This document shows positions 11,808 to 58,100 of a stretch of 64,000 nt of DNA, piece by piece. Positions within the stretch are counted from its first letter, which is position 1. Each line of letters opens with the position of its first letter. Origin of the DNA: Kiritimatiellia bacterium (GTDB lineage: Bacteria; Verrucomicrobiota; Kiritimatiellia; RFP12; UBA1067); NCBI GenBank assembly GCA_017406465.1, contig JAFQYM010000030.1, positions 31,684-95,683 on the forward strand, read 5' to 3'. The position numbers and the translations under genes were made by a program. The notes below the pieces were generated by a model, which saw only the letters and a program-made list of their open reading frames with translations, was not told the origin of the DNA and searched no databases.

Positions 11808-11856
11808 ACTTTGATTTTTCTTGTCAGATTTTCCCGTTGGCGGCGAGTAGGGGTGT

Positions 11857-40744: not shown

Positions 40745-42820
40745 CTACACGACAATCGCGCCGTTTTTCGCCGTGACCTTGATCTCGGCTCCCGGGAGAT
40801 ACTTCCCCGCGATGATGTTCTTCGCAATCGGGTTCTCGAGCTCGCGCTGGATCGCGCGCTTCACAGGGCGCGCGCCGAACGCTGGGTCGTAGCCGTCCTT
40901 CGCGAGCTGTGCAAGCGCCTTGTCATCGACAACGAGCTTGAAGTCCTGCTCCGCGAGACGCTTTGCGAAGTCCTTCAGCTGGAGCTTCACGATTTCGGCT
41001 ATTTGCGTTTCGTTCAGCGAGTCGAACTCGAGGATCTCGTCGAGGCGGTTCAGGAACTCCGGGCGGAAGATGTCCTTGAGCGCGTCCTTCGGCGCGTTCG
41101 AAGTCATGATTATCACCGTGTTCTTGAACGACACCGTGCGGCCGTGGCTGTCGGTGAGCCGTCCGTCGTCGAGCACCTGAAGAAGCACGTTGAAGACGTC
41201 GGGGTGCGCCTTCTCGATCTCGTCGAGAAGGACGACCGAGAACTGCTTTCTGCGCACGGCTTCGGTGAGCTGACCGCCTTCGTCGAAACCGACGTATCCG
41301 GGCGGCGCGCCGACGAGGCGAGAGACGGCGAACTTCTCCATGTACTCCGACATGTCGAGCCGGACCATCGCGTTCTCGTCGTCGAAGAGTTCCTGGGCGA
41401 GCGCCTTTGCGAGTTCCGTCTTGCCGACGCCAGTGGGCCCGAGAAAGAGGAACGCGCCGACTGGCCGGTTGCGGTTCTTGATGCCGGCGCGAGACCTGAG
41501 TACAGCGTCTGCAACAGCGTCGACCGCCTTGTCCTGGCCGATCACGCGTTCGTGCAAGATCGCGCCGAGACGCATAAGCTTCTCGCGCTCGCCCTCCACG
41601 AGTTTCGTTACCGGAATGCCGCTCCAACGCGAGACGACCTCGGCGATTTCGTCGGCCGTCACCTCCTCACGAAGAAGCGTCGCGCCTGACTTGGACTTTA
41701 GTGCGTCCTCGTGTTCCTTGAGGCGCTTTTCGAGCGCGGGGATGTCGCCGTACTTCAGTCGCGCGGCCTCGTTGTAGTTGCCCTCCGTCTCGGCACGCTC
41801 GGCTCGCGACTTGAGTTCCTGCAACTGGGTGCGCACCTTGCGGACTTCCTCAAGGTCGGCCTTTTCGCGCTTCCACTGCGCCGTCATTGCGTTGGATTTC
41901 TCCTTGAGCCCCTTGAGCTCAGACTGCAGTTCCTCTAGCCGCTTCTTGGAGTTCTCGTCCTTTTCCTTCTTTAGCGCGATTTCCTCGATCTCGAGACGGC
42001 GAACGTGGCGTGAAATCTCGTCGAGCTCTTGAGGGCACGAGTCCATCTCGGTTCGGATTCTTGCGCACGCCTCGTCGAGAAGGTCAATCGCCTTGTCGGG
42101 GAGGAATCGGTCTTGGATATAGCGTGAAGAGAGAACGACCGCGCTTACGAGCGCTTCGTCTCGTATGTGGACGTTGTGGTACTTCTCGAAGCGCTCCTTG
42201 ATTCCGCGCAGGATAGAGATTGCGTCTTCCTCGCTGGGCGCGGCGACCTGCACCGGCTGGAAGCGGCGCTCGAGCGCCTTGTCGGACTCCATGTACTTGC
42301 GGTACTCGTCGAGCGTGGTCGCGCCGACGCAGTGAAGTTCGCCGCGGGCGAGAAGGGGCTTCAGCATATTGCCTGCGTCGGACGATCCTTCGGTCTTGCC
42401 TGCGCCGACGATGGTGTGGATTTCGTCGATGAAGAGGATGATCTTTCCTTCAGATTCCTTTATCTTCTTTAATACGGCCTTTAATCGTTCCTCGAATTGG
42501 CCGCGGTACATTGCGCCTGCCATGAGGGCCGTCATGTCGAGGGCGAAGACCGTGCGGTCCTTGAGTCCTTCCGGCACGTCGCCTCGGACGATGCGCTGCG
42601 CGAGTCCCTCGACGATGGCTGTCTTGCCAACGCCCGGTTCGCCGATGAGCACGGGGTTGTTCTTCGTCTTGCGCGAGAGTATGCGGATGACGTCGCGAAT
42701 CTCGGTATCGCGACCGATGACTGGATCGAGCTTGCCAGTCCGTGCGAGCGCGGTCAAGTCGGAGCCGTACTTCTCAAGGCACTTCTCGTTGTCTTCTGCT
42801 GGTTCAAAATTTGCGTTCAT
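40745..42820 (-). CDS. clpB: ClpB disaggregase lacking the N-terminal domain
   Basis: KLDPVIGRD, Walker A GEPGVGKT and [18 protein letters not shown], coiled-coil M domain, [16 protein letters not shown] and a -10 lie directly upstream. Confidence 0.9.
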
Positions 42821-42850: not shown

Positions 42851-42899
42851 GAGCAATCGGAGTGCCATATAGGAAAACTGGGTTTATGTGGTAAAAATG

Positions 42900-42933
42900 G
42901 CGACATATTGTCTCTTGTGTGTCAATATGTCGC
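42900..42933. promoter_or_regulatory. Perfect 11-bp inverted repeat, candidate operator
   Basis: GCGACATATTG-N12-CAATATGTCGC. Confidence 0.45.
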
Positions 42934-42949
42934 AATTTTAAGGTTTTTC

Positions 42950-43049
42950 AAAAAAGTTTGTCATCGGCTGTCACTGGGTGCATACATTCACTTGGTTAAA
43001 CTTGTTGCTCGAACCGAAGCGTCATCTTCAACGCTTCGGTTTCGTGTTT
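42950..43049 (+). repeat. 100-bp direct repeat, copy 1
   Basis: Aligns without gaps to 47771-47870 with 4 mismatches (42974, 42975, 42979, 43031). Confidence 0.95.
42957..42984 (+). promoter_or_regulatory. Candidate ECF/alternative-sigma promoter, copy 1
   Basis: A-tract, TTTGTCATCG, N11, GTGCATA. Confidence 0.5.
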
Positions 43050-43050
43050 T
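42990..43050 (+). ncRNA. Candidate ~60-nt sRNA, copy 1
   Basis: Follows the promoter-like motif. Unstructured 5' part, then hairpin AACCGAAGCG-N10-CGCTTCGGTT and a T-rich tail. Confidence 0.4.
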
Positions 43051-43055
43051 TATGA

Positions 43056-43082
43056 AAAAGAGGTATTTGTAAAACCTCTTTT
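43056..43082 (-). terminator. Intrinsic (bidirectional-type) terminator of the C10 peptidase gene
   Basis: AAAAGAGGT-N9-ACCTCTTTT, 12 nt downstream of the minus-strand stop. Confidence 0.75.
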
Positions 43083-43094
43083 ATGCTGCGAGGG

Positions 43095-46000
43095 CTAAAG
43101 GTCTACAGGGAAAGCTTCGCATTCGGTGACGGAATTCTGTTCGTCCACCTTTATCCCAACAGAAAACATCCTATGCAAACCGTCAGATCCAACCTTTGGC
43201 GGAGCGAATGTCATTACCTGATATCCCTTGCCAGTCTTTACGAGTTGCGAAGTTCCGCTGACTTTCGTTGCGCCGTTGGCGAAGGAAACGACGCCATCTT
43301 TCTTAAAGGTCAGGACAAGACCGTCTTCCTGTTCCACTTTGAAATCCCTCTTGAATACCGGCATCGATGTCTTGGTATCCGCACGCTTCCAGAGATTCTG
43401 CCACGCAGACCACTCGTCGCACGACACTTCGCCTATCGCCGGAAGGTCGGTGTCGACAATGCTCGATGCGACCGTGATCACATTGGTTATCATGGCTTTG
43501 CCGTTTTTGCCGATGACGGTCGCGAGGAAAATGCCGTCCTCGGTGCTGTCATAGGAGCTCGCCGTGAGCGCCCATGTAAGGTTGTCGACAAGCATCTTGC
43601 CGCTTATCTTGCCTGCCGGCGACACCGTCAGCGCCTGGATGGCGCCGACTGCGTTGGCATCCGCGTCCCATGCCGTGCCGTAAAAGTTTCCAACCGCCCA
43701 TGCGGGAAGGGAATTGACTTGGAAGTCAAACGAGAATGTCTCTGATGACTTGCCTGCCGTCGTCACCGTGAATACTACCTTTGACGGCGTTACGGCGCCG
43801 GTCTTGGCATCGACCTTGGATGCCGTCGTCGGAACGCCCGTAACCGAATATTCCCCAGTCGTCTTGTTCTGGACGAGTTTTAGCCCGGCTGGAAGCCCCG
43901 CGACCTTCACCGTTGTCTTTGAAAGCCCGTCCGGCACAATCGGCCAGTCAAGGGCGACGCCGCAATAGCGGTTGACGGGCGCGTTTGCCGTGCCGCTCGC
44001 CGCGCCGTTCAGATTTGAGCTGTCCACTTCGAGGCCAATCGCGTCTTTGTCTTCCTGCGCAGTAACGAACTGTGCCGTGATGAATATGTCGTTCATGCCG
44101 TCCATTCTCAGCTTGATTGTCGCGGCGAAGGGATCCGGTATTTTGGCGTCTCCGCCGGTGATGACCCAGCGGCTGAAGACAAAGCCCTTGTCCGCCTTTG
44201 CCGTCAGCGAAACGTCCTTGCCTGCCGCGACCTGCCCGTACTTTGGGGTCATAGAAATCTTGCCTGTGGCGCCAGAGTCCTGCGTCAGCGATTCGATGGT
44301 GGCGACAATGCCGGGATCGCGGTAGACGTTGTCGCCGTAGTTCTCTCCATGGTGTGCGACGAGATTGACGTCCTTGAACACGGCAGGATATCCTTTTTTC
44401 GCGTCAGGGGGAATCGCAACTACTACGTGCAGTCCTGTTGGCTCTGCGAGCGCATTTGCCGAGAACGACGCTTTGCGCGACTTCGCGCCGTCGGGGATGT
44501 CGGCCGAACCTTTTACGGCGCCTTTCTCGTCAAGAGCAAAGGCAATCTCGCAGGAGGCATTGCCGTAGCCTGCGGAGAAGGAATAGGCGCCCGCGTATGT
44601 GGCGACAAGACCTGCGGCAAATGCATCGGATTTGTCCGACCAGATGATGCGGTAGAGCGTCGTGTCGTCGCTGCCGAACGAACCGGCGGCCGCGCCAGTT
44701 GCGGAGTCGACGGACAGGTATTCCGCCTTGAAGTCCGTGAGCGCCAGCGCCAGATCGCGAGTTATTTTGCCGGCGGTCGCCGACAGCCCGATCAGCAGGT
44801 TCGTTGTCCCCGTCGTTTCGCTTTCAATGGTGAAGGAATCGGCTTTGAACGTCCAGTTCGTGCCGTCCAGTGCGATTTTGCCCGATATCTTGCCTGCCGC
44901 CGTGATGCTCATCGTTGCCACGCCGCGCGAGGCGACGGATCCCTCGAAGTTTCCGACGGCCCATGAGGGAAGGGGGTCGACCGTTATCCTGACAACATAG
45001 GTCTTAGTCGACTTGCCTGCCGTCGTCACCGTGATCTTGACCTCCGACGGAGTGATGTGTCCCGTCTTTGCGTCGACCTTAGACGCAGCGGACGGAGCGC
45101 CGTAGATCGTATTTGCTGGGACAAGCACTTCCTTGGTCTTTGAATCGACAACGTCCTTTGCCGCAAACTTGAGCCCCGAGGGAAGCCCCGCCACTTTCAC
45201 CGTTGTCGCCGAGAGCGCCGTCGCGGCGACTGGCCACTGGAGCGAGATGCCGCACATTACATTTGTCAAGAGCGTGTCGGAGGGGTTTTCGAAGGAATGG
45301 CCGTCCATTTCAAGCGCAATCGCCTTTGCGTCATCGGCGAGCGTCGCAAAACGCGCTTCGAGCGCCAGGTCTTCTGCCGGCATCTCGAGTGAAAGCGCCG
45401 CATTTCGGGATTCATCCACCAGTTCCCCGTCCAGATAATAGCCGCAGAACGCGAAACCGGCGTTAGCCGTTGCCTTCAGCGCGACTTTCTTGCCGTATGG
45501 ATAGGAACCGGCGCCCGTGACCTTGCCCATTTGCGGAGCAGAAGCTCCGTCGCAGTCGACGACGTCGGCTGACAATTTCGGGAACAGCACGTTGAATCCG
45601 GCGGTAACGACCTTCTTTTTGCCGTCCTTTCTCGCGGTGAATGTTACGGTCGTGCGCCCCTCTTTCGCGGCAATGCCGCTCAGTCGCCTATTTGGGGCGT
45701 CGTATGCAATTCCCTGCGGCAACCCCGAAACGGTCAACGTCCAGCCATTCTCCGCGACGGTCGCAATAATGTCCGACAGGTCGGGCGCGAGCCCCGCCCA
45801 GAGTGTGTAGGGGCTGCCGAGTCCGAATCCAATAAAGGCATCGCGTTCAAACGTGGCTTCTGATATGATTGAGCAGTTAAGATCCTCCTTGAAGGCACGG
45901 GCCTTCACCGTTACGCTCGAAGAGATCTCGAACGGTCCGCAATACTCTTCGCTTTCTTCCGTCGGATCCGTTCCGTCCGTCGTATACTTTATGACGGCAC

Positions 46001-47696
46001 CGTCCGTGGCGCACGAAATCGTCACAAGTGTGTTTGGATAGAAGATTCCCCCGTTGGGCGAAATCATCGGCGGCGCGGCAGACTTGACGTTTATGACCAT
46101 GTCGCATCCCCAGGAGTTTCCACAGGCCACGCTTTTCCCCGCGTCATTGATCCAGCACATGCCAACGTCAAGAGTCACACTCGAGCTAGCGCTCCTTGTT
46201 GTCGTTGCCTTGGCCGACACACTGTAACCAGTCGCTTTCACGGTGTACGACTTGTCCGCGTCGACTACAAACGCATATATTCCCGATTCGCTTGTCGCCG
46301 TGCTGGCGATCGGCTCGTCGGAATCGGCAGAGAAGATCGCGACATCCACGTTGGGAAGGGGAGTGCCCTCTTCATCGGTAACGCGCCCGGACACTATTTC
46401 CCCGTTTGTCTCGGGGAATATATTGTATATGACCGATTCCACCATCGTAGACTCGTATTGGCCGTCGGCCGTCGTGATGTACGGCAAGGCATACCATACG
46501 TTGTCTTCACCTGACCACCCGAGGTTGACATGCGTATAGAGGGTCCCGTCTGAATAGCCGTAGCCGTCGGCGAAGGCGATGTGCCCGACAAATCCAAGGA
46601 TCACTGGCAGTCCTGCGTCAAGATTCGAGCAGACGATGCGATTGCGGAAACTCTCGTCCTTTAGATCCTTCTCGCATGCGCATACTATGGCGTTTTTGTA
46701 TCCAAAGTCTTCTATCAGCACCGATGCCGAGCCTGCTCCGCCTGAAGAACTGGCCTCCTCGTCCCACCACATCCTCATTGCGACACCGCAGTCGTATGTC
46801 AGTTTCCCGATGGCGGCCAGCTGGGTCTCGGTCGCCCCTCCTGCGTACCAAGGCACATATTCGTATGCCTCGGGAATAAGTGGCATGCTGTCATAGTCGT
46901 ATTCTCCGCCAAACATCGTCATGAACGCGTTTTTAGTCCGAACCTTGCAGCCCTTGGTCTTTGCCTTGACGGACTTTGGGTACTCGTGATAACGCATGAT
47001 TTGCGCAAGAGTCGTCGCAACGCATCCGCACGGATAGTTGCTTGGGGTGTAGTAGTTGTAGCAATTGGTGCCCATGTTGATGTATATGGAGTTGTTCTCT
47101 TGCCCCCACATTGACTTTACAAACGGCTCGACACGGACGTCGGAAACAGATTCGGCCGGGTCGGTGGCCGATTTCAGCATGTTCCTTGATCCCTTGGCCG
47201 AAGATGACGTTCTTGCGCCTTCCGAAAGGAGCCGATCCCACTGCCTTTGGGTGGCCGTGCGCTGCTGTTCCTCGGCCGTCGAAGTCAGGAGCCGGACCTT
47301 GCGAGCGGGAGTCGCGGGTTCGTTTGCGCGGGTGCGCATTGCGATATCGGCCTTGAGGATGTCCAAGAGCGGGCTGTTGCAGTCGCCCTTGCGCAGATTG
47401 CCTGTCGGCGAGAATGCAATGACCGGCTGGACAAGATCGTCTGCGCCCATGACGACGAAACCGCCGCCGTCAAGCGAGACGACGTGCATTTTCGCGTTGT
47501 CCGCCTCTAAGGTCTCGCCGTCCGCGGCGGATCTGCCGCGGAGACCATCCATGGAGTAGCCGAGGTTTATCCACGCCTGCGCTGCCGTCTTCGCGGACTC
47601 AAGCGAGACTTCTGCGGCATTTGAGATGGCCGGCGGGAAAAACAGTGCTGCGACTGCAATGGCCGAGGATGTCCAAGAAATGGATATCTTCTTCAT
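43095..47696 (-). CDS. Large secreted C10 (streptopain-like) peptidase with Spi/I69 prodomain, CHB_HEX_C-like, putative Ig and B-repeat domains
   Basis: GGFVVMGADD..QPVIAFS (I69-like), PCGCVATTLAQIMRY, GHIAFADGY, HVNLGWSG, YTTDGTDPT, repeated SGLP.G, G.VTGAGSY.YGKKV.LKATANAGF.F. Confidence 0.85.
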   Translation of the reverse strand: MKKISISWTSSAIAVAALFFPPAISNAAEVSLESAKTAAQAWINLGYSMDGLRGRSAADGETLEADNAKMHVVSLDGGGFVVMGADDLVQPVIAFSPTGNLRKGDCNSPLLDILKADIAMRTRANEPATPARKVRLLTSTAEEQQRTATQRQWDRLLSEGARTSSSAKGSRNMLKSATDPAESVSDVRVEPFVKSMWGQENNSIYINMGTNCYNYYTPSNYPCGCVATTLAQIMRYHEYPKSVKAKTKGCKVRTKNAFMTMFGGEYDYDSMPLIPEAYEYVPWYAGGATETQLAAIGKLTYDCGVAMRMWWDEEASSSGGAGSASVLIEDFGYKNAIVCACEKDLKDESFRNRIVCSNLDAGLPVILGFVGHIAFADGYGYSDGTLYTHVNLGWSGEDNVWYALPYITTADGQYESTMVESVIYNIFPETNGEIVSGRVTDEEGTPLPNVDVAIFSADSDEPIASTATSESGIYAFVVDADKSYTVKATGYSVSAKATTTRSASSSVTLDVGMCWINDAGKSVACGNSWGCDMVINVKSAAPPMISPNGGIFYPNTLVTISCATDGAVIKYTTDGTDPTEESEEYCGPFEISSSVTVKARAFKEDLNCSIISEATFERDAFIGFGLGSPYTLWAGLAPDLSDIIATVAENGWTLTVSGLPQGIAYDAPNRRLSGIAAKEGRTTVTFTARKDGKKKVVTAGFNVLFPKLSADVVDCDGASAPQMGKVTGAGSYPYGKKVALKATANAGFAFCGYYLDGELVDESRNAALSLEMPAEDLALEARFATLADDAKAIALEMDGHSFENPSDTLLTNVMCGISLQWPVAATALSATTVKVAGLPSGLKFAAKDVVDSKTKEVLVPANTIYGAPSAASKVDAKTGHITPSEVKITVTTAGKSTKTYVVRITVDPLPSWAVGNFEGSVASRGVATMSITAAGKISGKIALDGTNWTFKADSFTIESETTGTTNLLIGLSATAGKITRDLALALTDFKAEYLSVDSATGAAAGSFGSDDTTLYRIIWSDKSDAFAAGLVATYAGAYSFSAGYGNASCEIAFALDEKGAVKGSADIPDGAKSRKASFSANALAEPTGLHVVVAIPPDAKKGYPAVFKDVNLVAHHGENYGDNVYRDPGIVATIESLTQDSGATGKISMTPKYGQVAAGKDVSLTAKADKGFVFSRWVITGGDAKIPDPFAATIKLRMDGMNDIFITAQFVTAQEDKDAIGLEVDSSNLNGAASGTANAPVNRYCGVALDWPIVPDGLSKTTVKVAGLPAGLKLVQNKTTGEYSVTGVPTTASKVDAKTGAVTPSKVVFTVTTAGKSSETFSFDFQVNSLPAWAVGNFYGTAWDADANAVGAIQALTVSPAGKISGKMLVDNLTWALTASSYDSTEDGIFLATVIGKNGKAMITNVITVASSIVDTDLPAIGEVSCDEWSAWQNLWKRADTKTSMPVFKRDFKVEQEDGLVLTFKKDGVVSFANGATKVSGTSQLVKTGKGYQVMTFAPPKVGSDGLHRMFSVGIKVDEQNSVTECEAFPVDL

Positions 47697-47702
47697 GCGC
47701 GC

Positions 47703-47711
47703 ATTATATCA
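47703..47711 (-). promoter_or_regulatory. Extended -10 for the C10 gene (leaderless)
   Basis: TGATATAAT on the minus strand, 6 nt before the ATG. Confidence 0.65.
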
Positions 47712-47770
47712 AATTTTCCGCGTTTTGCCACTAGGGATCCTTGTGTAAAATAAGGATACGTAAAAAATCA

Positions 47771-47870
47771 AAAAAAGTTTGTCATCGGCTGTCATCGGGC
47801 GCATACATTCACTTGGTTAAACTTGTTGCTCGAACCGAAGCGTCATCTTCAGCGCTTCGGTTTCGTGTTT
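47771..47870 (+). repeat. 100-bp direct repeat, copy 2
   Basis: Offset 4821 bp from copy 1; 96 of 100 positions identical. Confidence 0.95.
47778..47805 (+). promoter_or_regulatory. Candidate ECF/alternative-sigma promoter, copy 2
   Basis: A-tract, TTTGTCATCG, N11, GCGCATA. Confidence 0.5.
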
Positions 47871-47871
47871 C
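47811..47871 (+). ncRNA. Candidate ~60-nt sRNA, copy 2
   Basis: Identical to copy 1 except one change at the loop edge (47852). Confidence 0.4.
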
Positions 47872-47930
47872 TAGGGTATGTCGCCTTTTGCGATTTTAGC
47901 CACAAAGAGCAGGAGAAACAGAAGGAGAGT

Positions 47931-48048
47931 CAGTAGTTGGAGTCCAGAGTTGGAGTTGGGGAGTGGAGTTGGCGGCGGAGCGAAGGCCTGGGCGAGGGGA
48001 TGCGGCGTGTTCGCCGAGGGCCCCTGAGGAGGAGCCTTCGGACGTCGC
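47931..48048 (+). repeat. GAGTTG-type tandem repeats followed by a nested REP-like palindrome
   Basis: agttgg/gagttg units at 47935-47972; CGAAGGC (47981) pairs with GCCTTCG (48034); GGCGA (47991) pairs with TCGCC (48011). Confidence 0.5.
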
Positions 48049-48071
48049 TAGACAAAAAAATTAAAAAATTT

Positions 48072-48099
48072 TTTGTCATCGCCAGCGTCGGCGTGCATA
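48072..48099 (+). promoter_or_regulatory. Candidate ECF/alternative-sigma promoter, copy 3 (outside the direct repeat)
   Basis: A-tract, TTTGTCATCG, N11 (a different spacer sequence), GTGCATA. Confidence 0.5.
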
Positions 48100-48186
48100 T
48101 TGCTTATTAGCAGACCCAATAAAATCAAGGGTTTTGCGCGTTTTTGCGGGGTAATTTTACCCACGAAATTTTTTTTGTATACCCCC

Positions 48187-48216
48187 TTGCGCACAGCACA
48201 CAAGATATGCTATAAT
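48187..48216 (+). promoter_or_regulatory. Sigma70 promoter of the surface-protein operon
   Basis: TTGCGC, 18-nt spacer, TATAAT preceded by TGC. Confidence 0.7.
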
Positions 48217-48222
48217 GTCCGC

Positions 48223-48441
48223 GTTCTCGAACAACAAGGAGGATTCGGACGATGTGTCCGGGCCTTGGTTAACAGACCGGGGCACAACGAAAGTTGACTC
48301 TGAAGTTGCGAGAGGACAACAAGTTAACCACCTGAAGTGGACTTGAGTGAAGGCGGTCGGGTGATCGCAAGAGCTCTGGAAAGCGGAAGGTACCGGAGAA
48401 GGGTCCAACAAGCCCGACTCCAAAAAAAGGAAAAAAACAAA
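48223..48441 (+). ncRNA. Structured ~220-nt 5' leader (candidate cis-regulatory RNA)
   Basis: Hairpins with GNRA loops (CAAC-GAAA-GTTG, C-GAGA-G, TC-GCAA-GA, CT-GGAA-AG); long-range GTCGGG/CCCGAC; three CAACAAG motifs. Confidence 0.5.
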
Positions 48442-49203
48442 ATGAAGAAGCTCATGATTGCTTGCGCTGTTGCGGCTACGACCGTCGGCGCTTTCGCGGG
48501 TGGCTGCGGTGACGACGATCCCGTCGTTGTTCAGGATCCTGTCAACCAGGTCTATCGTCTCTCCTTCACGGGCAAGACGACTGACGGCGTTCCGGGCAAG
48601 GATATTGTCACGCCCGTCTTCTGCGGCGATGACGACGTTCAGGACGGCTGCGTTGTTCGCGTCCCGGCGAACCTCAAGATCGAGGGCTGGGTTGTTCTCT
48701 GCGACATCACCTGCGGCACGATCCTCGACGTGTTCAACGCTCCGAAGAGCCAGGCCTACTGGACCACGAAGCCCTACAAGGCTGACATTCCGGATGGCGC
48801 TGCTACGTTCGATCTCATCAACGTGATCGGCAAGAAGGGCAAGGATGCTGAGGCTGCTGGTAAGTTCACTGGTACCGTTACGTACGCTGCGGACTATACG
48901 TGGTCGCTTGGCGACGGCCTTGTTTTCGCGGGCCTTGGAAAGACCGCGGTCAAGAACGGCAGCTGGGCGTACTTCCCGTCCTTCTCGGGCAACTTCGCTG
49001 GCTCGCCTGTCGCGTCCTGGTACATCAAGGGCAACGTCTGCGAGCAGACGCATGTCTGGGAGCCCTGCACGATGGCCGTCAACTGCGACGAGACCCCGAA
49101 CACGGTTGCGTTCGGCAAGTGGGCGATGAAGTATGATGCCGCGGCCACGAAGAAGGTTGCGACGACGAATCCTAGCAAGCCGTCTTACGCGACGATCCAC
49201 TAA
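48442..49203 (+). CDS. Secreted Cys-rich hypothetical protein, probably highly expressed
   Basis: Signal peptide MKKLMIACAVAATTVGAFA; 8 Cys in the mature part; many GCT/GTT/GGT codons, unlike neighbours; SD AAGGA. Confidence 0.85.
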   Translation: MKKLMIACAVAATTVGAFAGGCGDDDPVVVQDPVNQVYRLSFTGKTTDGVPGKDIVTPVFCGDDDVQDGCVVRVPANLKIEGWVVLCDITCGTILDVFNAPKSQAYWTTKPYKADIPDGAATFDLINVIGKKGKDAEAAGKFTGTVTYAADYTWSLGDGLVFAGLGKTAVKNGSWAYFPSFSGNFAGSPVASWYIKGNVCEQTHVWEPCTMAVNCDETPNTVAFGKWAMKYDAAATKKVATTNPSKPSYATIH

Positions 49204-49228
49204 GGTTCGAAAGCAGTAGAAATGCTGC

Positions 49229-49275
49229 GACAACAGCAGGGGGTATCTCAAGACGCCTCCTGCTGTTGTCCTCTT
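49229..49275 (+). terminator. Long hairpin, terminator or processing/stabilising stem
   Basis: GACAACAGCAGG...CCTGCTGTTGTC (12-bp perfect outer stem) followed by ctctt. Confidence 0.6.
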
Positions 49276-49291
49276 AAAGGGTTATAAGTTG

Positions 49292-50440
49292 ATGAAATTT
49301 AGCGTGAGGGTTTGTTTCTCGTCTATTTTGTTCGCGGCGTTGCTTGTTGGCTGCGGACGGAATGAGCATTCAAGGGCACCTGGCGAGTATGTTGGCGGCG
49401 TCCCTCTTCTTATGGATGAGTTGTCGAATGGCGATGTGGTTTTCATCGTAAATGGCGAGAAGTACACCAAGCGCGATTTTCGGACGGCTGTTTCGCTGGC
49501 GGACAAGATGCGTCGGATGTGTGCGGGCGATCCTTTGACGGGCCCGAACAAGCCGGCTCAGGAGTATTCAAGATGGGCGCGGCCCCGCACGCTGAGCGAT
49601 GCCTTTCGCCGGGTGCTGATGCGCCAGTATACGAAGAAGAATGGCATCACGCCGACGCAGGAAGAGATCGACGAGTCCGCGATGCGCGTTCTCATGAATC
49701 TCAAGCGTGGGAAGTCGACGCTCGATGCTGTCGAGAAGGAGTTTGGCAAGGCGGACGGGAAGCTTTTCCGCCAGTATGTTCTTGATGACGCGACCGAGCA
49801 GGCGGCGCGGCGGTTTGTGGACGACAAGGGAACTTTGAACATCACGGACGACGACGTGATCAACATTTCAAACAGGATTGCCAGGTTTCAGGCCCGCGCG
49901 GCGGCGTCGAACGCGGTCGAGAAGGCGATTCTCGAGAAGGCAATCGCCGAAATCGCTGCGGGCAAGGATTTCGCGGAGGTCGCGAAGGCGTATTCGCGAG
50001 ATCCGGAGCAGGGTGCGCTGTGGGAGACGAGCTACCTCGACGAGATGGAGTCGAGCCCTGCGTTGATGAAGTGGGCTTCGAGCGCCAAGGCCGGCGATGT
50101 CTCGGGCATTCTCGAGCTTGATGATGGTTGGGCGATCGTAAAAGTCGTTTCGAGGCGCGACGAGGACATTCCGCCCGGAGTCATTAAGATACCACGGGAA
50201 ATATGGGAACTTGTGCGCGTCTCGAGAAACCTTTTCGAGTCTCCGCCCGACATGGATCGCGAGGAAATCGTCGCGAAGCTTCGTGAGTTCAGGAATAAGG
50301 ACCTCCAGAAGAAGATCGGCGACCTGATCATGAAGGAGGCCGTCATCGAATGGCCGAACGGCACGAACCTCTTTGTAAAGGCGGCGGCTCCGGCGGTCAA
50401 GAAGGATCCGCCGGAGGCGAAGTCCGCGGAGGACAAGTGA
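49292..50440 (+). CDS. PrsA/SurA-like parvulin PPIase lipoprotein
   Basis: Lipobox LLVGC; SurA-N-like helical region; rotamase-like GKDFAEVAKAYSRD...GDVSGILELDDGWAIVKV. Confidence 0.75.
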   Translation: MKFSVRVCFSSILFAALLVGCGRNEHSRAPGEYVGGVPLLMDELSNGDVVFIVNGEKYTKRDFRTAVSLADKMRRMCAGDPLTGPNKPAQEYSRWARPRTLSDAFRRVLMRQYTKKNGITPTQEEIDESAMRVLMNLKRGKSTLDAVEKEFGKADGKLFRQYVLDDATEQAARRFVDDKGTLNITDDDVINISNRIARFQARAAASNAVEKAILEKAIAEIAAGKDFAEVAKAYSRDPEQGALWETSYLDEMESSPALMKWASSAKAGDVSGILELDDGWAIVKVVSRRDEDIPPGVIKIPREIWELVRVSRNLFESPPDMDREEIVAKLREFRNKDLQKKIGDLIMKEAVIEWPNGTNLFVKAAAPAVKKDPPEAKSAEDK

Positions 50441-50483
50441 CTTTCAAGAAACGGAACACATGCAGAGAAGGAAGGAGAACAAC

Positions 50484-53400
50484 ATGAAAATCAAGGGACA
50501 ACTTGTACTATCCGCCCTCGCCGCAGCCGCGACGTTGCTGGCGGTCGCCGATTCGCGAGTCGAGTCGTCGTCCGACGCGCAGCTTTTCGAATTCTTCACG
50601 GCCGACCGCGCGCCAGTCGGTTCGGAAATCCAATTGGGCGTCTGGAACTCCGACATCGACGCCTGCATCGAACTTGCCAAGGAGACGGGCATCCCGATGA
50701 TCGGCGTCTGGAGCCGCGAGGGTTGCGCGCACTGCAAGATCCTCGAGCACGCGATCATGTCCGACGTGTTCCGCGAGTGGATTAAGAAGAGCGGGCTCAT
50801 CCTCGGCTTTTCGACCTCTCTCGACTCGGCGACCTTGAGCGGAGCGGATCAGGCGACGCGCGCCAAGCACTATCCGGGCGTCGTCTTCGACGAGGGCGGC
50901 GGACGTCAGCAGGCGGCGAATCCTGCGTCTGGCACGCCGACGGGCTATACGGGCGACGGACGCTACTGGAAGTGGTGCAAGGGGCCGGAAAACCTCTCGA
51001 ACTACCCGGAAGTCCGCTTCTTCTGGTACGAGGACGGAAAGAAGAAAGTCGACTTCGCCGTTCTCGGCGACAAGGTCGACGGCCAGCAGGGAATCTACAT
51101 GGGTTCGTACGACAAGGCCGGCCAGAACTGCATCAACTACATCACGAACAAGACGGGTTTCAAGCCCTATCTCGATAATCCGAAGTCGCTGTCGTCCTAT
51201 ATGGGCGGCACGTTTGAGGACGGCTACACGGACGGCAACCGCCTCGAGGCAGAAGAGGGCACTGGCGAGATTTCGTTCGACATGGTGCGCGGCGAAGCCG
51301 CCGCGGCCGTCGCGACGAACAACACCGTGAAGGTAGTCGGTCCCGACAAGCAGGTTGCCGAGACGGTCGTCGTCGAGTGGGAGGAGGGCGAGGACCAGAA
51401 GACCGTGACGGTCGACATGTCGAAGGTGAATTTCTCGAAGAACGGCGACAAGGCGCTTCTCATCGCTGTCGACGCCGATGGCAACGAGCAGGCGACGAAC
51501 ACCGTCACCTACGTTACGGGTTCTGGCGAGAGTTCGGGCAATCCGCTTTGGATTGGCGAGCGCAAGGCGACAACGGCGGATGGCGACATCCCTGTTCTCC
51601 AGTTCGGCGAATGGACGATGGACCTCGACGTCGCGAAGGCCAAGGTTGCGGACGCCGACGGCGACGCCTTTACGCTCGTCTCCGTCCAGGGTGCGCTCTG
51701 GTGCCCGGACTGCGCCAACACCGAGCGCAACTTCACGGACGTGGAGGATGGATCCGGAAATAATAGGTTCGCCGCCTGGGCGGCTGCAAATCAGGTTGCG
51801 CTTGTCGCAATCGACGTGCCCTCGTTCGCCACGAACAACATCGACAACATCTCGCGTCCGACGCTTCTTTCGCGCAAGGCGATTTCCACGACGCTGGCGC
51901 GCGCGAGGGAGTATCCGGCGTCTGGCGCAGAAGCCTCGCTTACGAACGCGATGGTTCGGAGCGGACTTGGGTATCTCACGCGCAAAGGCGTTTCGGATGA
52001 AGTTGCGGCGGACTATCTTGAACGCAATCGGCAGCTCGTAACGACTGACTTCTCCGAGGGTGGTTTTCATAGTGTGGCGGACAGTTCGCCGTTCCGCACC
52101 GGCGTTCCGATCTTCGTGGTCCTCGACAAGGAAGGAATCGTCAAGGCGCGCCTGACGCGCTTCGCGAGCGTGAGCCCGATGTCCGACCTTGACTGGGACA
52201 GCGCCATCAAGCGCTTCGACGAGCTGCTGGCGATTGCGCGGGACGGCAGCGCGCATGCCGACGGCGGCGTTCTCGAGAACGACTTCCCGTCGGCTGACCT
52301 CGAGGGCTTCACGGCGAACGGTGGAAGGGTTTCCGGGGAGATTTCGCACTGCGACTTCAGGGATGTCTACAAGCTGCAGAACTTCGGCGGCAACGCCGTG
52401 CTGCAGGTCGACGCCGTGGGCGAGTCCGACGCGGAGGTCTCGCTGGCCTTCGTGACGCTCGATGCCGCGGGCAGGAAGACGACGGTCACGAACGCGGTCG
52501 GCCGGCTCTCGGACGGCGTTTCGCTGCGGAACATGTTCGCGAGCGCGGGCGAGTATTACGTCGAGATCTCTGGCGCGAGCTACGATGCAGCGGACTTTGC
52601 CGTTGCGAATCCGACCGCTCTCGCCTTCCATACCTACACTCTCTCCGGTGCGGTCGTCCTCGTTCCTGGCGAGGTGCGCTCCACGGCGTCCGCTCCCGAA
52701 GGGCAGACGACCGTCACGATGGAGCTCGTAGAGGGGACACGCTACCGCATCGAGGGACTTGCGGACGATCCTGGAGACTCGCTCGAGAAGTCCGGCGAAG
52801 ACTTCTATGTCGCGAAGACCACTGGCAGCGCCCAGCTTTCCGTCGCGACGGCGGGCGGCGAGGTCGTGTACCAGATTTGGAATCCTGGCTCCGTCGGCTT
52901 TGTTGCGGCCGCCAAGAAGGTGAAGGAGAGCGTCGGCGACGTCGAGGTGGCGATTGCGCGCACGGAGGGGACGTCCGGCGCCGTGACGGTGAAGGTCGCG
53001 CTTGATGAGGACGCGACGACGCTGTACGACAGCGATGGGAAGGCGCGCTTTGCGTTCGCGGAGACCGAGATCACATGGGCGGAGGGCGCGAACTTCACGA
53101 CGAACTTGACGATTTCCGTTTACGACGACACCCGGTTCGACGGAAACGGCGACGTGGCGCTCAAGCTCGCGCTCGTCGCGGACGAGAACGGCGACACGAC
53201 GCTCGGGCTGACGAACTACGTGCTGACGGTGACGGAGGACGACAAGCAGTCCGCCGGCAAGGCCGCGTTCACGGGGGCCGAACCGTTCTTCTCGAAGAAG
53301 GCCACGGTGTACGCCCGCGAGAGCGAGGGCGCGACGGTTTACGCCGAGCGCATCGAGGCCTCCGACGGCTTCGTGACGGTGAAGGTGAACGCGACGAACG

Positions 53401-55136
53401 GCGCGAAGACCGAGATTGGCGGCGTCGAGACGAACGTTGTCGTCTGGGCGAACCACAAGTCCGAGTTCCAGGCGGTCAAGGTGACGGGAATCGCCGCCGG
53501 AAAGTCCGCGAAGCTGACGCTCGTCAACCCGACCGACGGGCTCAAAGTCCTCTCGGCCTCCAACGCGGTGACGGTCGTCGCGGTGGCGGACGATGCGCCG
53601 GCGTTTGACAGCCTCGAGGAGGGTGCGACGCTCTATCGCTATGCAGAATTCGCCGCCTCCTATCCCGTCGTTGGCGCGGCCGAGGGTGCGAAGCTGACGT
53701 TCACGAAGCTCTCGGGGACGCTTCCCGCGGGGCTTAAGGTTGCTGCGGACGGCCAGGCGATGTCCGTTTCGGGCATCCCGTCGGCGAAGCCGGGAACCTA
53801 TGTGGCGGTCTACCAGGTTTCCCAGAAGGTCGGCACGAAGACCACGCCCGGTCTCACGATCGAGCTTGAGTACGAGATTGTCGACCCGACGGACGCATCT
53901 GCGGGCGGGACGGCCTACAACGAGGCGGTTGCGTCCGTGAACTCGCGTACGATCAAGGACATCGCCATGATTGCGCTAAACAAGGACATCGACGCGGCGG
54001 ACACGAACCGCCTGGCCGGACTCCTCCAGGTGACGATTCCGAAGACCGGCAAGCTCAGCGCGAAGCTGGCCTGTTCGGACGGGACTGTCGCCTTCTCTGC
54101 GAAGGGCTGGAGCGAATTCAACGAAGTCTCCCGCTCGCTCGTCGCCGACCTGACGTCGAACAAGGCCGGCTACTCCATGACGCTCGTCGCGGAGAATGAC
54201 GGCCCCGTCACCGTCTCCGTGACGACTCCCACGGGCGTCCAGCTATCCGGCATCACGAAGGGGAAAGTCTGGAGCAAGACGAATCCTGCGAGCGACTGGA
54301 TGGGCTACTACACAATCCAGCTAATCAACAATTCCGTGTCCGAAAGCTCCGAAGGTGTCGCGCCGCGCGGTAACGGCTACCTGACGCTCAAGATGAACAC
54401 GGCCGCGGCGGTGAATTCCGGTAAGGTGACGTGGGCGGGAATGCTTCCGAACGGCACGGCCGTTTCCGGTTCCGTCGTCCTCAACGCGGACGACGAGTGC
54501 GGGGCGCAGGTCTTCGTCTACAAGCGCTCCTCCACGGACGAGATTTCGAGCATCCTCGAGATCCCCGACTGCGAGTCGGTTGCGGGCGATCTCGACACGG
54601 GTGCCTTCTGGAAGCATACCGAGAAGTCCTTTGCGTACGAGGTCGGCTTCAACGCTTACGGTGCGCTGTACGTCGCGACGACCAACCTTGCCGAGGCCTG
54701 CGAAATCGGGTACGAGACGACGACGCCGACGCTGTACTTCGACATCGAAGGGCTCTGCGGCGCGCTTGCCGGCGGGACGCCGTCCGCGGTCGACGGCGTG
54801 AAGGTTTCCGTCGGCGAGAAGACTGTCACGGTTGAGAAGGGCAACGCGGCGGGCGCGACAATCTCGCTCAACCGCTCGACGGGCGTCGCGACTGGGTCGT
54901 TCAAGATTCCGTATACGGACGCTAAGGGTGCGGCGAAGACGATGACGGCGAACTTCAAGGGCGTCGTGGTGATCGGATGGGGTCCGGGCTGCGGCTGCGG
55001 CGACGATGATCCTAGCAGACCTGTGGCGCTTCCGTTCGTGAATGGTGCATTCTTCGTCTCCGACAAGGTTGGCGTGGCCGGCGGCACCAAGACGGCGACG
55101 GTCAAGCGCGGCGGAGCCATCTTCATTGACAAGTAA
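50484..55136 (+). CDS. Giant secreted protein: two thioredoxin-like CxxC domains, Calx-beta, putative Ig, conserved C-terminal module
   Basis: SD AAGGAG before ATG 50484; signal peptide; WSREGCAHC and ALWCPDC; Calx-beta-like VGF......V.E.....V.I.R..G..G.V.V; SGTLPAGL. Confidence 0.8.
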   Translation: MKIKGQLVLSALAAAATLLAVADSRVESSSDAQLFEFFTADRAPVGSEIQLGVWNSDIDACIELAKETGIPMIGVWSREGCAHCKILEHAIMSDVFREWIKKSGLILGFSTSLDSATLSGADQATRAKHYPGVVFDEGGGRQQAANPASGTPTGYTGDGRYWKWCKGPENLSNYPEVRFFWYEDGKKKVDFAVLGDKVDGQQGIYMGSYDKAGQNCINYITNKTGFKPYLDNPKSLSSYMGGTFEDGYTDGNRLEAEEGTGEISFDMVRGEAAAAVATNNTVKVVGPDKQVAETVVVEWEEGEDQKTVTVDMSKVNFSKNGDKALLIAVDADGNEQATNTVTYVTGSGESSGNPLWIGERKATTADGDIPVLQFGEWTMDLDVAKAKVADADGDAFTLVSVQGALWCPDCANTERNFTDVEDGSGNNRFAAWAAANQVALVAIDVPSFATNNIDNISRPTLLSRKAISTTLARAREYPASGAEASLTNAMVRSGLGYLTRKGVSDEVAADYLERNRQLVTTDFSEGGFHSVADSSPFRTGVPIFVVLDKEGIVKARLTRFASVSPMSDLDWDSAIKRFDELLAIARDGSAHADGGVLENDFPSADLEGFTANGGRVSGEISHCDFRDVYKLQNFGGNAVLQVDAVGESDAEVSLAFVTLDAAGRKTTVTNAVGRLSDGVSLRNMFASAGEYYVEISGASYDAADFAVANPTALAFHTYTLSGAVVLVPGEVRSTASAPEGQTTVTMELVEGTRYRIEGLADDPGDSLEKSGEDFYVAKTTGSAQLSVATAGGEVVYQIWNPGSVGFVAAAKKVKESVGDVEVAIARTEGTSGAVTVKVALDEDATTLYDSDGKARFAFAETEITWAEGANFTTNLTISVYDDTRFDGNGDVALKLALVADENGDTTLGLTNYVLTVTEDDKQSAGKAAFTGAEPFFSKKATVYARESEGATVYAERIEASDGFVTVKVNATNGAKTEIGGVETNVVVWANHKSEFQAVKVTGIAAGKSAKLTLVNPTDGLKVLSASNAVTVVAVADDAPAFDSLEEGATLYRYAEFAASYPVVGAAEGAKLTFTKLSGTLPAGLKVAADGQAMSVSGIPSAKPGTYVAVYQVSQKVGTKTTPGLTIELEYEIVDPTDASAGGTAYNEAVASVNSRTIKDIAMIALNKDIDAADTNRLAGLLQVTIPKTGKLSAKLACSDGTVAFSAKGWSEFNEVSRSLVADLTSNKAGYSMTLVAENDGPVTVSVTTPTGVQLSGITKGKVWSKTNPASDWMGYYTIQLINNSVSESSEGVAPRGNGYLTLKMNTAAAVNSGKVTWAGMLPNGTAVSGSVVLNADDECGAQVFVYKRSSTDEISSILEIPDCESVAGDLDTGAFWKHTEKSFAYEVGFNAYGALYVATTNLAEACEIGYETTTPTLYFDIEGLCGALAGGTPSAVDGVKVSVGEKTVTVEKGNAAGATISLNRSTGVATGSFKIPYTDAKGAAKTMTANFKGVVVIGWGPGCGCGDDDPSRPVALPFVNGAFFVSDKVGVAGGTKTATVKRGGAIFIDK

Positions 55137-55153
55137 AACGACAAGGGGGTAAA

Positions 55154-58100
55154 ATGGTCTCAAAATTTTCGATTGTCGCGATTGCGGCGACCTTGGCGGT
55201 CGGCACGGTGTTTGGCGCCGCGAAGACGGGCAGCTACGAGGGGTCGGCCGCGGCCCTCAAGGGTTCGCAGAGGGTGACGCTCGTCGGCGAGTACGATCCG
55301 GACGACAAGACGTATTCCGACTATTCGGGCGTCTACTACATGAAGGTCACGATCTCGAAGGGGTCGTCCTACTCGATTTGGACGGACCCGAACGAAGACA
55401 TCTCGCTCGACGTCTACACGAACAACGAGGACGCGTGGGTGTATTTCGACAGTGACTTCCTCGACGACGGTACCCAGTACGCCCGTCTCTCGGCTGCGGA
55501 TTGGTATGAAGACGATCCCTCGAAGGTGGTGTTCTACGTTCTGGTCTCGGGCGACATCGGGACGAGCGTGGGGGTCTATTCGCAGAGCTCCTGGCGGTCG
55601 TTCGTGCCTCCGGGCGATGAGGACAACAAGTACCACCTGTCGTTCTCGGAATCCGCGAAGACGTTCTCGTCGTCGTTCCTCGACGACGATTCGTACTGGA
55701 TGTCGGCGACGCTTTCGAAGGGGCGCATGTATCGCATCCGCACCGAGGGCGGCACTGTGGCGGATCCAACCGAGTTCATCATCGAGTCGGACGCCGACAC
55801 GTACGAGGTCTATCCCGATCCCGAATACGCCGCCGACACGAACAACTCGGCGTTTGTCTTCCGCCCGATCATCACGTCGAGTTCGGCCACGTACCAGTTC
55901 CGCGTGGTGGGTACCGCGGGGAAGGATTTCGTGCTCCACTACCAGCTCCTGAAGTCCCGCAAGATCGCCGACCATCCATCCATCGCCCTTGACGCCGTCG
56001 GCTATGAGGCGACATTTGCTCCCGGCCGCGAGATTGCGAGTTGGGACTACGCCGACTCGATAATCGACGAGCAGCTGTTCTCCATCAACCTTGCGAAGGG
56101 CGAACGCTGGGTCTTCGAGACGGAGGGTGCGGCTGTTCCGCTCAAGATGGTGGTCTACGATTCCAAGGAGAACATCCTTGCCGAGAACCAGACGCTTGAC
56201 GGCGTCGGCTACGATGTCCGCGCGGCTGTCGAGGCCACTGCGGCCGGCAAGTACTATGTGGGCGTCTGCGAATCTGAAGTGGGTCCGGGAGAGGCGACGA
56301 GTGGTGGTGTCGTAACGATCCGCGCCCGTGCGGTCTCCGCGCTTGAGGGCGATCCCGACGAGTTTGACTCGCTCGATGACACGGTCGAGGGCGCGACTGG
56401 GCTCGAGGTGCTTCCCGGCAACGAGGAATCGCATCCTGCCGAAGCCGGCTTGCAGCATGGCCCGCACCGCCTTTCTGCGACCGACTGGGCCGATACATTC
56501 GTCATTGCTGCGCGCAAGGGCATCACCTACCGCGTCGGAATGAGCTTCGTCGACATCGAGGACATGTCTCCTCTTCCTCTTCGGTGCGAGGTGTTCACTG
56601 TCGCCGGGACGAAGGAGACTTCCGTCGCACAGGATGAGCTCGGGGGCGTGTTCGGAGGCTACGTAGAGTTCACTGCGTCCGCGAACGCAGCCTACTACGT
56701 GCGTTTCACGGTCGCTGGCGGAAAGAGCCTCGACTATCCCGCCTACAATGTGAGTTCGGTCGCCTATCAAGCGGGCGGCGGCCTCGGCATCTTGACCGTC
56801 GACATGCCTGGATCTTCGGGGGCGACCTGGTCCCTCGGTTCTGAGTCGGTCAAGTATCCCGCCGGGTCGTCTGTTCTTGTGAGTGGCACGCAGTTGGTCA
56901 AGTTCACCGCTCCAAGCGGCTACAAGGTCTCCGACGTCATCGTCGGTGGAGTGTCGTATGGCGCGGTTGCATCGGTCTCCGCGAAGGTTGATCCGGGGAC
57001 TGCCCCGACTGTCGTTAGTGCGAAGTGCTCCGACACGTTCGACCCGAAGGATGACGTCGCCGCGGGCGCGACGGCGCTCTCGGTCAAGAACGTTGATACA
57101 GTGTACGCTAAGCGCACGCTCTGGGAGGAGGACAAGGCGGACTACTTCTCGCTCACGGGAACTGACGGCTACCTCTACGACTTTGCGCTGCGCGGCGTCG
57201 AGGGCGACGCGGTGTTCTCGATTGTCAACGACGATCTCGGCGTGCTCGTCGAGGACGTGACAAGCGTCAGCCAGTTTGAGATGCCGAAGACGAAGTCGAA
57301 GTACTTCATCGTCGTGTCCCATGGCACGGAGGCGGCGACGGGCGGTGCGTATTCGCTCGTCGGCAAGTTCGCGAACGTCGGCGCCATCAAGTTCGCGAAG
57401 ACCGCCGTGAGCGCGAAGGAAAGCGCCGCGTCCGTGGCCATCACCGTCAACCGCACTGCGAAAGACGGCTATGTCCGCGTCAAGTACGGCACCGTGGCGG
57501 GCACCGCGAAGCCCGGCATCGACTATATCGCGCAGAACGGCGTCCTCGAGTGGGCGAATGGCGACAACAAGGCGAAGACGATCACCGTCAGCCTGCTTCC
57601 CGACCTCGTGCCGGTCTATGAGGGCAACAAGGCCTTCTCCGTCCAGCTGGAGCCGATGCCTGAAGACGAGCGCGTCGCGGGCGAGTATCCTGCGTTGGTC
57701 GTAGGCGGCGACGTCTGCGCAGTCACCTTGACGGAGGTCTCCAAGGCCGGCACCACGGCGGCGGATGCTTATGCGAAGCTGGCGCCGAAGCTCGCGACGG
57801 TGAAAACTGAGATGGTTCCGCTTGAGACCGGCACGTTCTACGGCGTACTCGAAGAGGACGGCTCTTCCCTCACGAATGGCCTGCCAGCGCTGGCATCTGT
57901 CACCCTGACCGCGTCCACGGCGAAACCGTCCGCGCTGTCCGCAAAGGTCGCGCTCGCCGGCAAGACCTACACCTTCTCCGCGAAGGGCTGGGATGACGGC
58001 GACGACGAGGGGACGGTCAGGAAGGAGTTCATCCTCGCGCGGAAGGTGAACAGCATTGACGAGGAGACTGGCAAGACCGTGTCCGTGACCGTCACCAACA

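Follow-up and report, generated by a model that had tools for sequence, protein, structure and literature searches.

Two predicted small-RNA genes with complementarity to the structured leader of a neighbouring operon for exported proteins in a Kiritimatiellia bacterium

The window analysed here is a stretch of 64,000 nucleotides from a Kiritimatiellia bacterium (Verrucomicrobiota; Kiritimatiellia; RFP12; UBA1067), which corresponds to positions 31,684 to 95,683 of contig JAFQYM010000030.1 (assembly GCA_017406465.1) on the forward strand; all positions given below are counted from its first letter. It contains two direct repeats (42950-43052 and 47771-47873), which have the appearance of small-RNA genes and are situated upstream of an operon with a structured leader. 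The explanation that best accounts for the observations as a whole, and which is considered fairly probable, is that two paralogous genes encode an Hfq-independent, base-pairing RNA of about 60 nt, whose seed would pair with the linker of the neighbouring leader.

Both repeats comprise 103 nt and are 95% identical to each other, and just these two copies occur in the whole assembly of 3.5 Mb (83% complete). The parts of the repeat follow each other in a constant order, beginning with an A-tract, followed by the box TTTGTCATCG, a spacer and GCATAC, then by eight variable nucleotides and the segment UGGUUAAACUUGUUGCU, and ending with a GC-rich hairpin and a U-rich tail. Copy 1 folds with a free energy of -20.5 kcal/mol (z -3.8). 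At both copies a terminator scan calls a 12-pair hairpin (12-13 bp, GC-rich), which is followed by UUUCGUGUUUUU or UUUCGUGUUUCU. A duplicated small RNA had already been proposed in the first-pass annotation of this DNA, with a seed TGGTTAAACTTGTTG at 42993-43007 and 47814-47828. These coordinates are correct, and the comparison of sequences supports well that the repeat is a small-RNA gene, in which a promoter-like motif is conserved, the 5' segment is both invariant and unpaired, and the stem of the terminator hairpin covaries. That this gene is transcribed, and where the small RNA starts and ends, we infer from the sequence; the start was placed approximately at the first U of UGGUUAAACUUGUUGCU, because the conservation of the RNA body begins there (at UGG).

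Of 151 genomes sampled from the family, 15 were found to carry the small RNA by BLAST and a covariance model (R1); these belong to two genera and possess one to three copies each. It was additionally found on 13 GTDB contigs and on 57 metagenome contigs, often as tandem pairs. By this distribution, the small-RNA family is restricted to one family of the Kiritimatiellia. Its conservation is of the kind expected for an RNA: close relatives show no variation in the 17 nt at the 5' end, which are predicted to be unpaired, and in an alignment of 33 distinct sequences 98.4% of the hairpin is paired (slid controls ≤51%), with changes on both sides at 6 of its 15 pairs. Searches of Rfam with both repeats and the leader (gathering score and E≤10) gave no meaningful match, and neither a small RNA nor a small-RNA target in Kiritimatiellia was found described in the searchable literature or in Rfam. 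Across 21 genomes of the order no Hfq was found, although the search did detect it in the control genomes, and a tblastn search of the genome studied here found neither Hfq nor CsrA.

The surroundings of the copies also provide information on their nature. Copy 1 is flanked by clpB on one side and by the 3' end of a convergent C10-peptidase gene on the other, and no co-oriented gene follows it on the 3' side, while copy 2 is located between the start of the C10-peptidase gene and the plus-strand operon. In relatives, the solitary copies L031, L033, L034 and L035 are likewise followed by convergent genes. Tandem copies 135-330 nt apart and free of any cargo were observed in genomes G016, G182, G119, G127 and G140 and on many metagenome contigs. 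Because solitary copies precede convergent genes, the copies are, judging from the gene order, independent transcription units and not attenuators. A cis-acting attenuator was also considered as a candidate and rejected, since it would need a co-oriented gene after every copy, which copy 1 and the four solitary copies named above do not have.

The operon that follows copy 2 is preceded by a leader, here termed type A, for which a consensus fold with 49 pairs, 18 of them with compensatory changes, was obtained (RNAalifold, 11-species alignment). These changes occur in both the 5' multibranch domain and the 3' domain, and the leader of the genome studied here has a z-score of the minimum free energy of -3.55. 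Homologues of the leader were sought with a second covariance model (R2), by which only a single leader was found in this genome. The predicted binding site of the small RNA, CAACAAGUUAACCA, equals the reverse complement of the seed once a single U is left out. It is situated in the linker between the 5' and the 3' domain and is unpaired in the consensus fold as well as in the minimum-free-energy fold of this leader. The invariant core of the site is CAAGUUAACC (48320-48329). In the 11-species alignment the longest invariant run of the leader is ACAAGTTAACC, and in 29 metagenome leaders CAAGTTAACC is the sole long invariant block. The site precedes the start codon by about 110 nt where the leader is long and by 20-50 nt in G011 and G176, whose leaders are short. 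The A-rich ribosome-binding site is predicted to be unstructured, no matter whether the linker is free or not.

The complementarity between the seed and the conserved site in the leader had been recognized in the first-pass annotation, which had listed CAACAAGTTAACCA at 48317-48330, three CAACAAG motifs (48232, 48317 and 48406) and TGGTTAAC at 48266-48273. All of these positions hold, and the match with one edit is unique in the genome and conserved across species. The two other CAACAAG motifs had been regarded as additional matches to the seed. The motif at 48232 is not conserved; that at 48406 is conserved, but it is not specific to genomes with the small RNA, as AACAAGC is likewise retained in the type-B leaders (see below) of relatives that do not carry it. 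Two weaker sites, which had been assigned to the ribosome-binding sites of downstream genes (50475 and 55139), reached duplex energies of -9.2 and -11.0 in comparison to a mean of -11.6 for random windows and are therefore at chance level. It had also been suggested that the small RNA could displace the leader's own TGGTTAAC from the target. This cannot be upheld, because this partner is absent from the leaders of G012 and G021, which retain the target, and because the consensus fold places TGGTTAAC in a local hairpin and leaves the target unpaired, without any compensatory change for a long-range helix. An internal helix of TGGTTAAC and GTTAACCA as a general feature of the leader was rejected on the basis of the leader comparison and the consensus fold.

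The probability of a chance match was estimated for the genome studied here. Within one edit of the perfect 15-nt complement, 48317-48330 is the sole site in the genome besides the antisense strands of the two small-RNA genes, and 60 shuffled 15-mers gave a mean of 0.18 such sites per genome. CAACAAG itself is over-represented in the window, mostly in coding sequence (20 occurrences, 4.6 expected). No site for pairing was found in the 5' regions of clpB or of the C10-peptidase gene. Taken alone, the match in this genome is suggestive, not decisive. As raw duplex energy does not single out the leader, the energy ranking was replaced by the count of exact complements and by the comparison of species, on which the case rests. 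A repeat of at least 200 nt (…GCGACGGCTCTCGCACATCAGACAATGAGCCGAGTTTAGCCTGCCGTGCCTCGGCGTCTATCACTGG…), which occurs in 11 copies outside the window (C9, C21, C22, C25, C43, C55, C82, two each on C84 and C94; partial on C66), contains a moderate, G-U-rich match to the seed, which is probably due to chance.

In the species comparison, the small RNA and the leader were found in a constant arrangement. A type-A leader is located a few hundred nucleotides downstream of the small RNA and on the same strand in ten genomes (the one studied here, G016, G013, G182, G173, G119, G127, G168, G140 and G076), and in G011 the small RNA is likewise located upstream of a leader on the same strand, so that the arrangement is seen in at least 11 species. 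Of the 57 metagenome contigs with the small RNA, 29 also contain the leader, which is co-oriented in 29 of 29 cases; the seed is separated from the leader's 3' domain by 208-526 nt in 28 of these and by 2376 nt in the remaining one. The site is retained in the short leaders of G011 and G176, which are otherwise unrelated. Small RNA and leader also tend to occur together: among the 151 genomes, nine possess both, six only the small RNA, two only the leader, and 134 neither of them (Fisher p = 3e-9, without correction for phylogeny). Genome G133, which had been scored as having only the small RNA, does carry the target in a diverged leader, and relatives with type-B leaders possess neither the site nor the small RNA, with the exception of G019.

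The sequence changes in seed and site fit a pairing of the two. Among close relatives, the bulge is the only variable position of the seed (A; C in G012; deleted in G013 and G173), and its deletion in G013 and G173 results in a perfect duplex of 14-15 bp with about -20 kcal/mol. Changes in the target are of the type A>G opposite a U of the small RNA (CAGCAAG, CGGCAAG, ACCG). In G176 both the seed (UGGUUCUAC...) and the target (GUAAAACC) are changed in the same segment, and the cognate duplex reaches -17.4 kcal/mol versus -15.7 and -15.0 for the cross-pairings. As to the covariation of seed and leader in related genomes, which the first-pass annotation had named as a check, the pairing is kept and the bulge is the sole variable position in close relatives; a double-sided change was found only in G176. 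On the grounds of this comparison, the neighbouring leader is a plausible cognate target.

The promoter-like motif of the small-RNA genes can be described as TGTCAYYG-N12-SGCATA. In 46 distinct instances across species, the TGTCA and GCATA boxes are invariant and their spacing is fixed, while the sequence of the spacer is free; about half of the instances possess a second, degenerate GTCA half-site 10 bp downstream of the first. Only three true sites of this motif occur in the 3.5 Mb of the genome studied here, those of both small-RNA genes and one at 48065. The promoters of the operon and of the C10-peptidase gene are classical ones (TTGnnn-17/18-TATAAT) and are unlike this motif. By its sequence, the small-RNA promoter is a distinct, rare class. 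Because the motif is rare and differs from the sigma-70-like promoter of the operon (TTGCGC-N18-TATAAT), a dedicated sigma factor or activator that reads it is plausible. The alternative sigma factor proposed in the first-pass annotation is hence conceivable, as is an activator, but the motif is not the consensus of sigma-E, which is GGAACTT-N16-TCAAA and which it does not resemble. Neither sigma-70, sigma-54, sigma-32 nor sigma-E fits the motif. Sigma-70 was rejected because the -10 element lacks a T at position 6, sigma-54 because a GG/GC pair at -24/-12 is missing, and sigma-32 because the motif is absent from heat-shock genes. No regulator gene was found in the window, and no gene of a two-component system or of an extracytoplasmic function (ECF) sigma factor is located near the locus.

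The third site of the motif belongs to an element designated unit 3, in which the T-run of the second hairpin ends right at the -35 element of the operon. Unit 3 is kept in G013, G182, G173 and G110, and the motif is present also in G176 and G021, always directly upstream of the -35 element of the operon. It may represent another small-RNA candidate or family; alternatively, it may serve the operon as an additional promoter further upstream, under the same regulator. In a third genus (L109; G120, contig C23, 792-930), the same promoter motif was observed in front of a different RNA candidate of about 110 nt, which contains CAAGAGUUAACCG and a strong terminator and is located upstream of a relative of the leader with the linker CAAAAGGUUAACCUCC. 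From its sequence, this locus looks like a diverged version of the circuit.

According to the favoured explanation, a dedicated promoter class of the type TGTCAYYG-N12-SGCATA, read by an alternative sigma factor or an activator, would transcribe each small-RNA gene. The transcript would extend from approximately the first U of UGGUUAAACUUGUUGCU to the covarying GC-rich hairpin with its U-rich tail and would act in trans. Its unpaired 5' seed would pair with the invariant linker (C)AACAAGUUAACCA between the two leader domains of the secreted/surface-protein operon, and this pairing would more probably affect the fate of the mRNA, with the AU-rich linker being attacked by nucleases or shielded from them, or the architecture of the leader, than the access to the ribosome-binding site. 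Direct occlusion of the ribosome-binding site is unlikely in the long leaders, because the site is about 110 nt away from the start codon and the ribosome-binding site is unstructured either way. Repression is slightly favoured over activation by analogy with FopS (PMC11697453) and with the small RNAs of the enterobacterial envelope; activation through protection of the linker is nearly as likely.

Some leaders of the clade differ from that described above. So-called type-B leaders precede homologous genes at five loci (L049, L050, L051, L052 and L054 in G008, G023, G022, G018 and G019, respectively); they are located about 290 nt before ATGAAGAAGCT, have the 5' domain in common with type A and possess a different, strongly conserved 3' part (…GCUGAAUGGCAUAAC…GCCGACCGUGUUCACGCGGGU…CCGGGUAGCUCCGG…). 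An Rfam search with them gave no match. Promoterless copies of the leader were also observed (L069, G016 C2:60772-60976; L111, G140 C38:~21300-21540; L112, G133 C308:~11500-11900). Their homology starts at a CGGAY..GTCCG palindrome, and the copy in G133 directly follows the 3' end of a reading frame that resembles a tyrosine recombinase (…HARYT…). In G012 and G013, contigs break within the leader. The predicted small-RNA site lies downstream of the CGGAY..GTCCG palindrome.

A more specific version of the circuit would combine these features. In this version, a dedicated regulator, which is either an alternative sigma factor or of the OmpR/PhoB type, would read the motif and have the two small-RNA copies and unit 3 as its entire direct regulon in this genome. 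The RNA would act on the linker of a leader that is common to alternative surface-protein operons, which are swapped behind one promoter by recombination at the palindrome at the 5' end of the leader. It would thereby control whichever operon is on, and would do so without Hfq, by having the linker cleaved or protected some 110 nt before the AUG and not by blocking the ribosome-binding site. As a whole, this chain of assumptions is unlikely.

Several observations weigh against the neighbouring leader as the target of the small RNA. The co-occurrence counts are not phylogenetically independent. In the six small-RNA genomes without a detectable type-A leader, either other targets must exist or the assemblies must be incomplete. 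G019 holds the small RNA but only a type-B leader with a weak site (-12.7), and in G120 both the small RNA that accompanies the leader relative and the 'target' sequence are different ones. Strict two-sided covariation of seed and target is limited to the one imperfect case of G176. Furthermore, the duplex at the site (-16.8 kcal/mol, G-U pairs allowed) ranks about 224th genome-wide; among random 250-nt windows about 1% do equally well, and so do several other 5' regions once G-U pairs are allowed. In the ranking of 5' regions, the crude gene caller took the leader for coding sequence. In the genome-wide search for targets, a ranking of which had been suggested as a check, the leader stands out as the sole near-perfect Watson-Crick complement and not by raw energy.

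A rival reading regards the small RNA as a genuine, trans-acting one whose main targets are located elsewhere in the genome, with the complementarity to the leader being secondary or due to shared ancestry. The genomes without a type-A leader, among them G019 with type B only, would agree with this, as would the solitary copies far from any leader and the approximately 220 genomic sites of equal duplex energy, several of which are located in 5' regions. On the other hand, no place in the genome other than the leader offers a near-perfect Watson-Crick match, no part of the leader is more conserved than the site, which even persists in short leaders of unrelated sequence, the synteny is tight, and the absence of leaders may stem from assemblies which are 79-92% complete and break at this repeat. 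Main targets elsewhere are therefore regarded as quite unlikely.

A role in cis would have to be assumed if the repeats were upstream alternative promoters with read-through past a weak terminator, so that the 5' UGGUUAAACUUGUUG pairs intramolecularly with the linker in an isoform with a long 5'-UTR. The unit indeed nearly always precedes the leader by 200-530 nt and shares its strand, its U-tail is poor in most orthologues (UUUCGUGCAUCU), a point that also counts against the favoured explanation, and the same motif recurs in unit 3 directly upstream of the sigma-70-like promoter of the operon. However, copy 1 and the solitary copies L031, L033, L034 and L035 face convergent genes and have nothing to read into, it is difficult to see why a cis element should be duplicated in tandem, the GC-rich stem of 12-13 bp is strongly selected, and the strong TTGCGC/TATAAT promoter downstream of the unit should start most of the leader transcripts. 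As a general explanation, a cis element is very unlikely; for the copy adjoining the operon, read-through in cis is possible.

It is scarcely credible that the repeats are DNA-level elements instead of RNA genes, that is, direct repeats of an insertable or excisable C10-peptidase cassette, a site of recombination or an operator: one gene of 4.6 kb fits exactly between the two copies and the leaders of the clade seem prone to recombination, with promoterless copies of which one lies beside the end of a recombinase-like frame, but the copies of relatives are solitary or stand in tandem without a gene in between, and the pattern of conservation, with boxes kept, spacer free, stem compensatory and loop free, is RNA-like.

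The features of the locus are compiled in Table 1.

Table 1. Features of the small-RNA locus and the neighbouring operon (positions within the window)
Feature	Position	Strand	Remarks
Promoter-like region, small-RNA copy 1	42950-42992	+	A-tract; TTTGTCATCG 42957-42966; fixed spacer; GCATA 42980-42984; 8 variable nt
Small-RNA copy 1, ~60 nt (predicted)	42993-43052	+	unpaired seed UGGUUAAACUUGUUGCU 42993-43009; terminator hairpin stem 43011-43042; tail CGUGUUUUU
Promoter-like region, small-RNA copy 2	47771-47813	+	TTTGTCATCG 47778-47787; GCATA 47801-47805
Small-RNA copy 2 (predicted)	47814-47873	+	seed as in copy 1; terminator hairpin stem 47832-47863; score 85 bits
Unit 3, same promoter motif	48065-48180	+	TTTGTCATCG 48072-48081; GCATA 48095-48099; hairpin GACCC-AAUAAAAUCA-GGGUU; second hairpin with T-run
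Sigma-70-like operon promoter	48187-48216	+	TTGCGC, 18-nt spacer, TATAAT; conserved as CCCCCTTGCGC...TAnAAT
Structured type-A leader, ~220 nt	48223-48441	+	5' multibranch domain, unpaired linker, 3' domain, hairpin 48395-48421, A-rich ribosome-binding site
Predicted small-RNA binding site	48317-48330	+	CAACAAGUUAACCA (DNA CAACAAGTTAACCA); 7 + 7 Watson-Crick pairs; one bulged A in the small RNA
Second conserved CAACAAG motif	48406-48412	+	loop of conserved hairpin 48395-48421; possible secondary 7-bp site
Presumed regulated operon	48442-59260	+	four genes; AUG of the first at 48442
253-aa exported Cys-rich all-beta protein	48442-49203	+	first operon gene
PpiC/SurA-like prolyl isomerase	49289-50440	+	operon
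Giant Calx-beta protein 1	50460 or 50484-55136	+	operon
Giant Calx-beta protein 2	55154-59260	+	operon
clpB	40745-42820	-	adjoins small-RNA copy 1
C10-peptidase gene, 1533 aa	43095-47696	-	Spi inhibitor-like N-terminus, CHB_HEX_C, InlB B-repeat domains

The first gene of the operon has no match in Pfam or NCBIfam, and its homologues are hypothetical proteins of Kiritimatiellia only. Its product gives a confident all-beta AF2 model (pLDDT 84.6), for which no fold match was found in the PDB. As neither a named homologue nor a fold match was found, the label 'major surface protein', which the first-pass annotation had given to the operon, is not supported. For the giant protein 1, the ATG at 50484, which is preceded by AAGGAGAA, is a likelier start than that at 50460. 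The C10-peptidase gene was probably inserted between pre-existing paralogues of the small RNA, because these are in tandem in relatives. In the region upstream of clpB, just before copy 1, a near-perfect palindrome was observed (42894-42939; AAAATGGCGACATATTG ... CAATATGTCGCAATTTT), the 17-nt arms of which are 94% complementary and separated by a gap of 12 nt. This palindrome is a candidate operator for a heat-shock-type repressor.

Among described systems, FopS/GibS of Bacteroides thetaiotaomicron are multicopy RNAs of about 65-70 nt in a gut anaerobe without Hfq; the family is deposited in Rfam, and FopS represses operons for surface and outer-membrane proteins by pairing with the 5' end of their first cistron, which is susC of polysaccharide utilization loci (PULs) (PMC11697453). 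The likeness to the Kiritimatiellia RNA, which would also be a multicopy RNA of similar size in a host without Hfq, concerns the architecture only, since the latter belongs to another phylum, has no relation to FopS/GibS in sequence or Rfam, and possesses an unrelated seed. Further differences exist: FopS has a housekeeping promoter, pairs at the translation-initiation region and has many dispersed PUL targets, whereas the Kiritimatiellia RNA has a rare dedicated motif, its predicted site is a linker that precedes the AUG by about 110 nt, and one neighbouring leader family is its only clear target.

The sigma-E-dependent RNAs RybB and MicA of enterobacteria are short, possess an intrinsic terminator and a stress-sigma promoter and carry their seed at the 5' end or close to it. 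They down-regulate abundant envelope-protein mRNAs, and their omp targets, which are numerous and dispersed, are paired in the vicinity of the ribosome-binding site or in the early coding region. Short length, 5' seed and intrinsic terminator are also predicted for the Kiritimatiellia RNA. In contrast to RybB and MicA, its presumed target is a neighbouring one with the site far upstream of the start codon. The analogy to sigma-E-driven RNAs drawn in the first-pass annotation can be maintained on the functional level only, as the motif is not the sigma-E consensus, no Rfam match was obtained and Hfq was not found in the 21 genomes.

Regulators whose direct regulon consists mostly or only of small-RNA genes are represented by GacA with RsmX/Y/Z, CiaR with csRNA1-5 and LuxO/sigma-54 with Qrr1-5. 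The locus described here resembles these systems in its paralogous small-RNA genes with one distinctive motif, which is nearly absent elsewhere (three sites in 3.5 Mb), and the second GTCA half-site 10 bp downstream, present in about half of the instances, is what the binding of a response regulator to direct repeats would lead one to expect. A difference from the Rsm RNAs is that these sequester a protein and do not base-pair, and CsrA was not found by tblastn in the genome studied here.

Kiritimatiellia are abundant and almost uncultured members of rumen and gut communities. For these bacteria, the locus provides a concrete pair of a predicted 60-nt RNA and a 14-nt site, accompanied by a structured leader family and by a distinctive promoter motif, which hints at a regulator. 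The exported giant proteins encoded by the operon probably shape the cell surface. That small RNAs tune the mRNAs of surface proteins is well known, and no new principle is claimed here. Nevertheless, with a site far from the ribosome-binding site and a host without Hfq, the predicted circuit would be a useful case of small-RNA action outside the model phyla.

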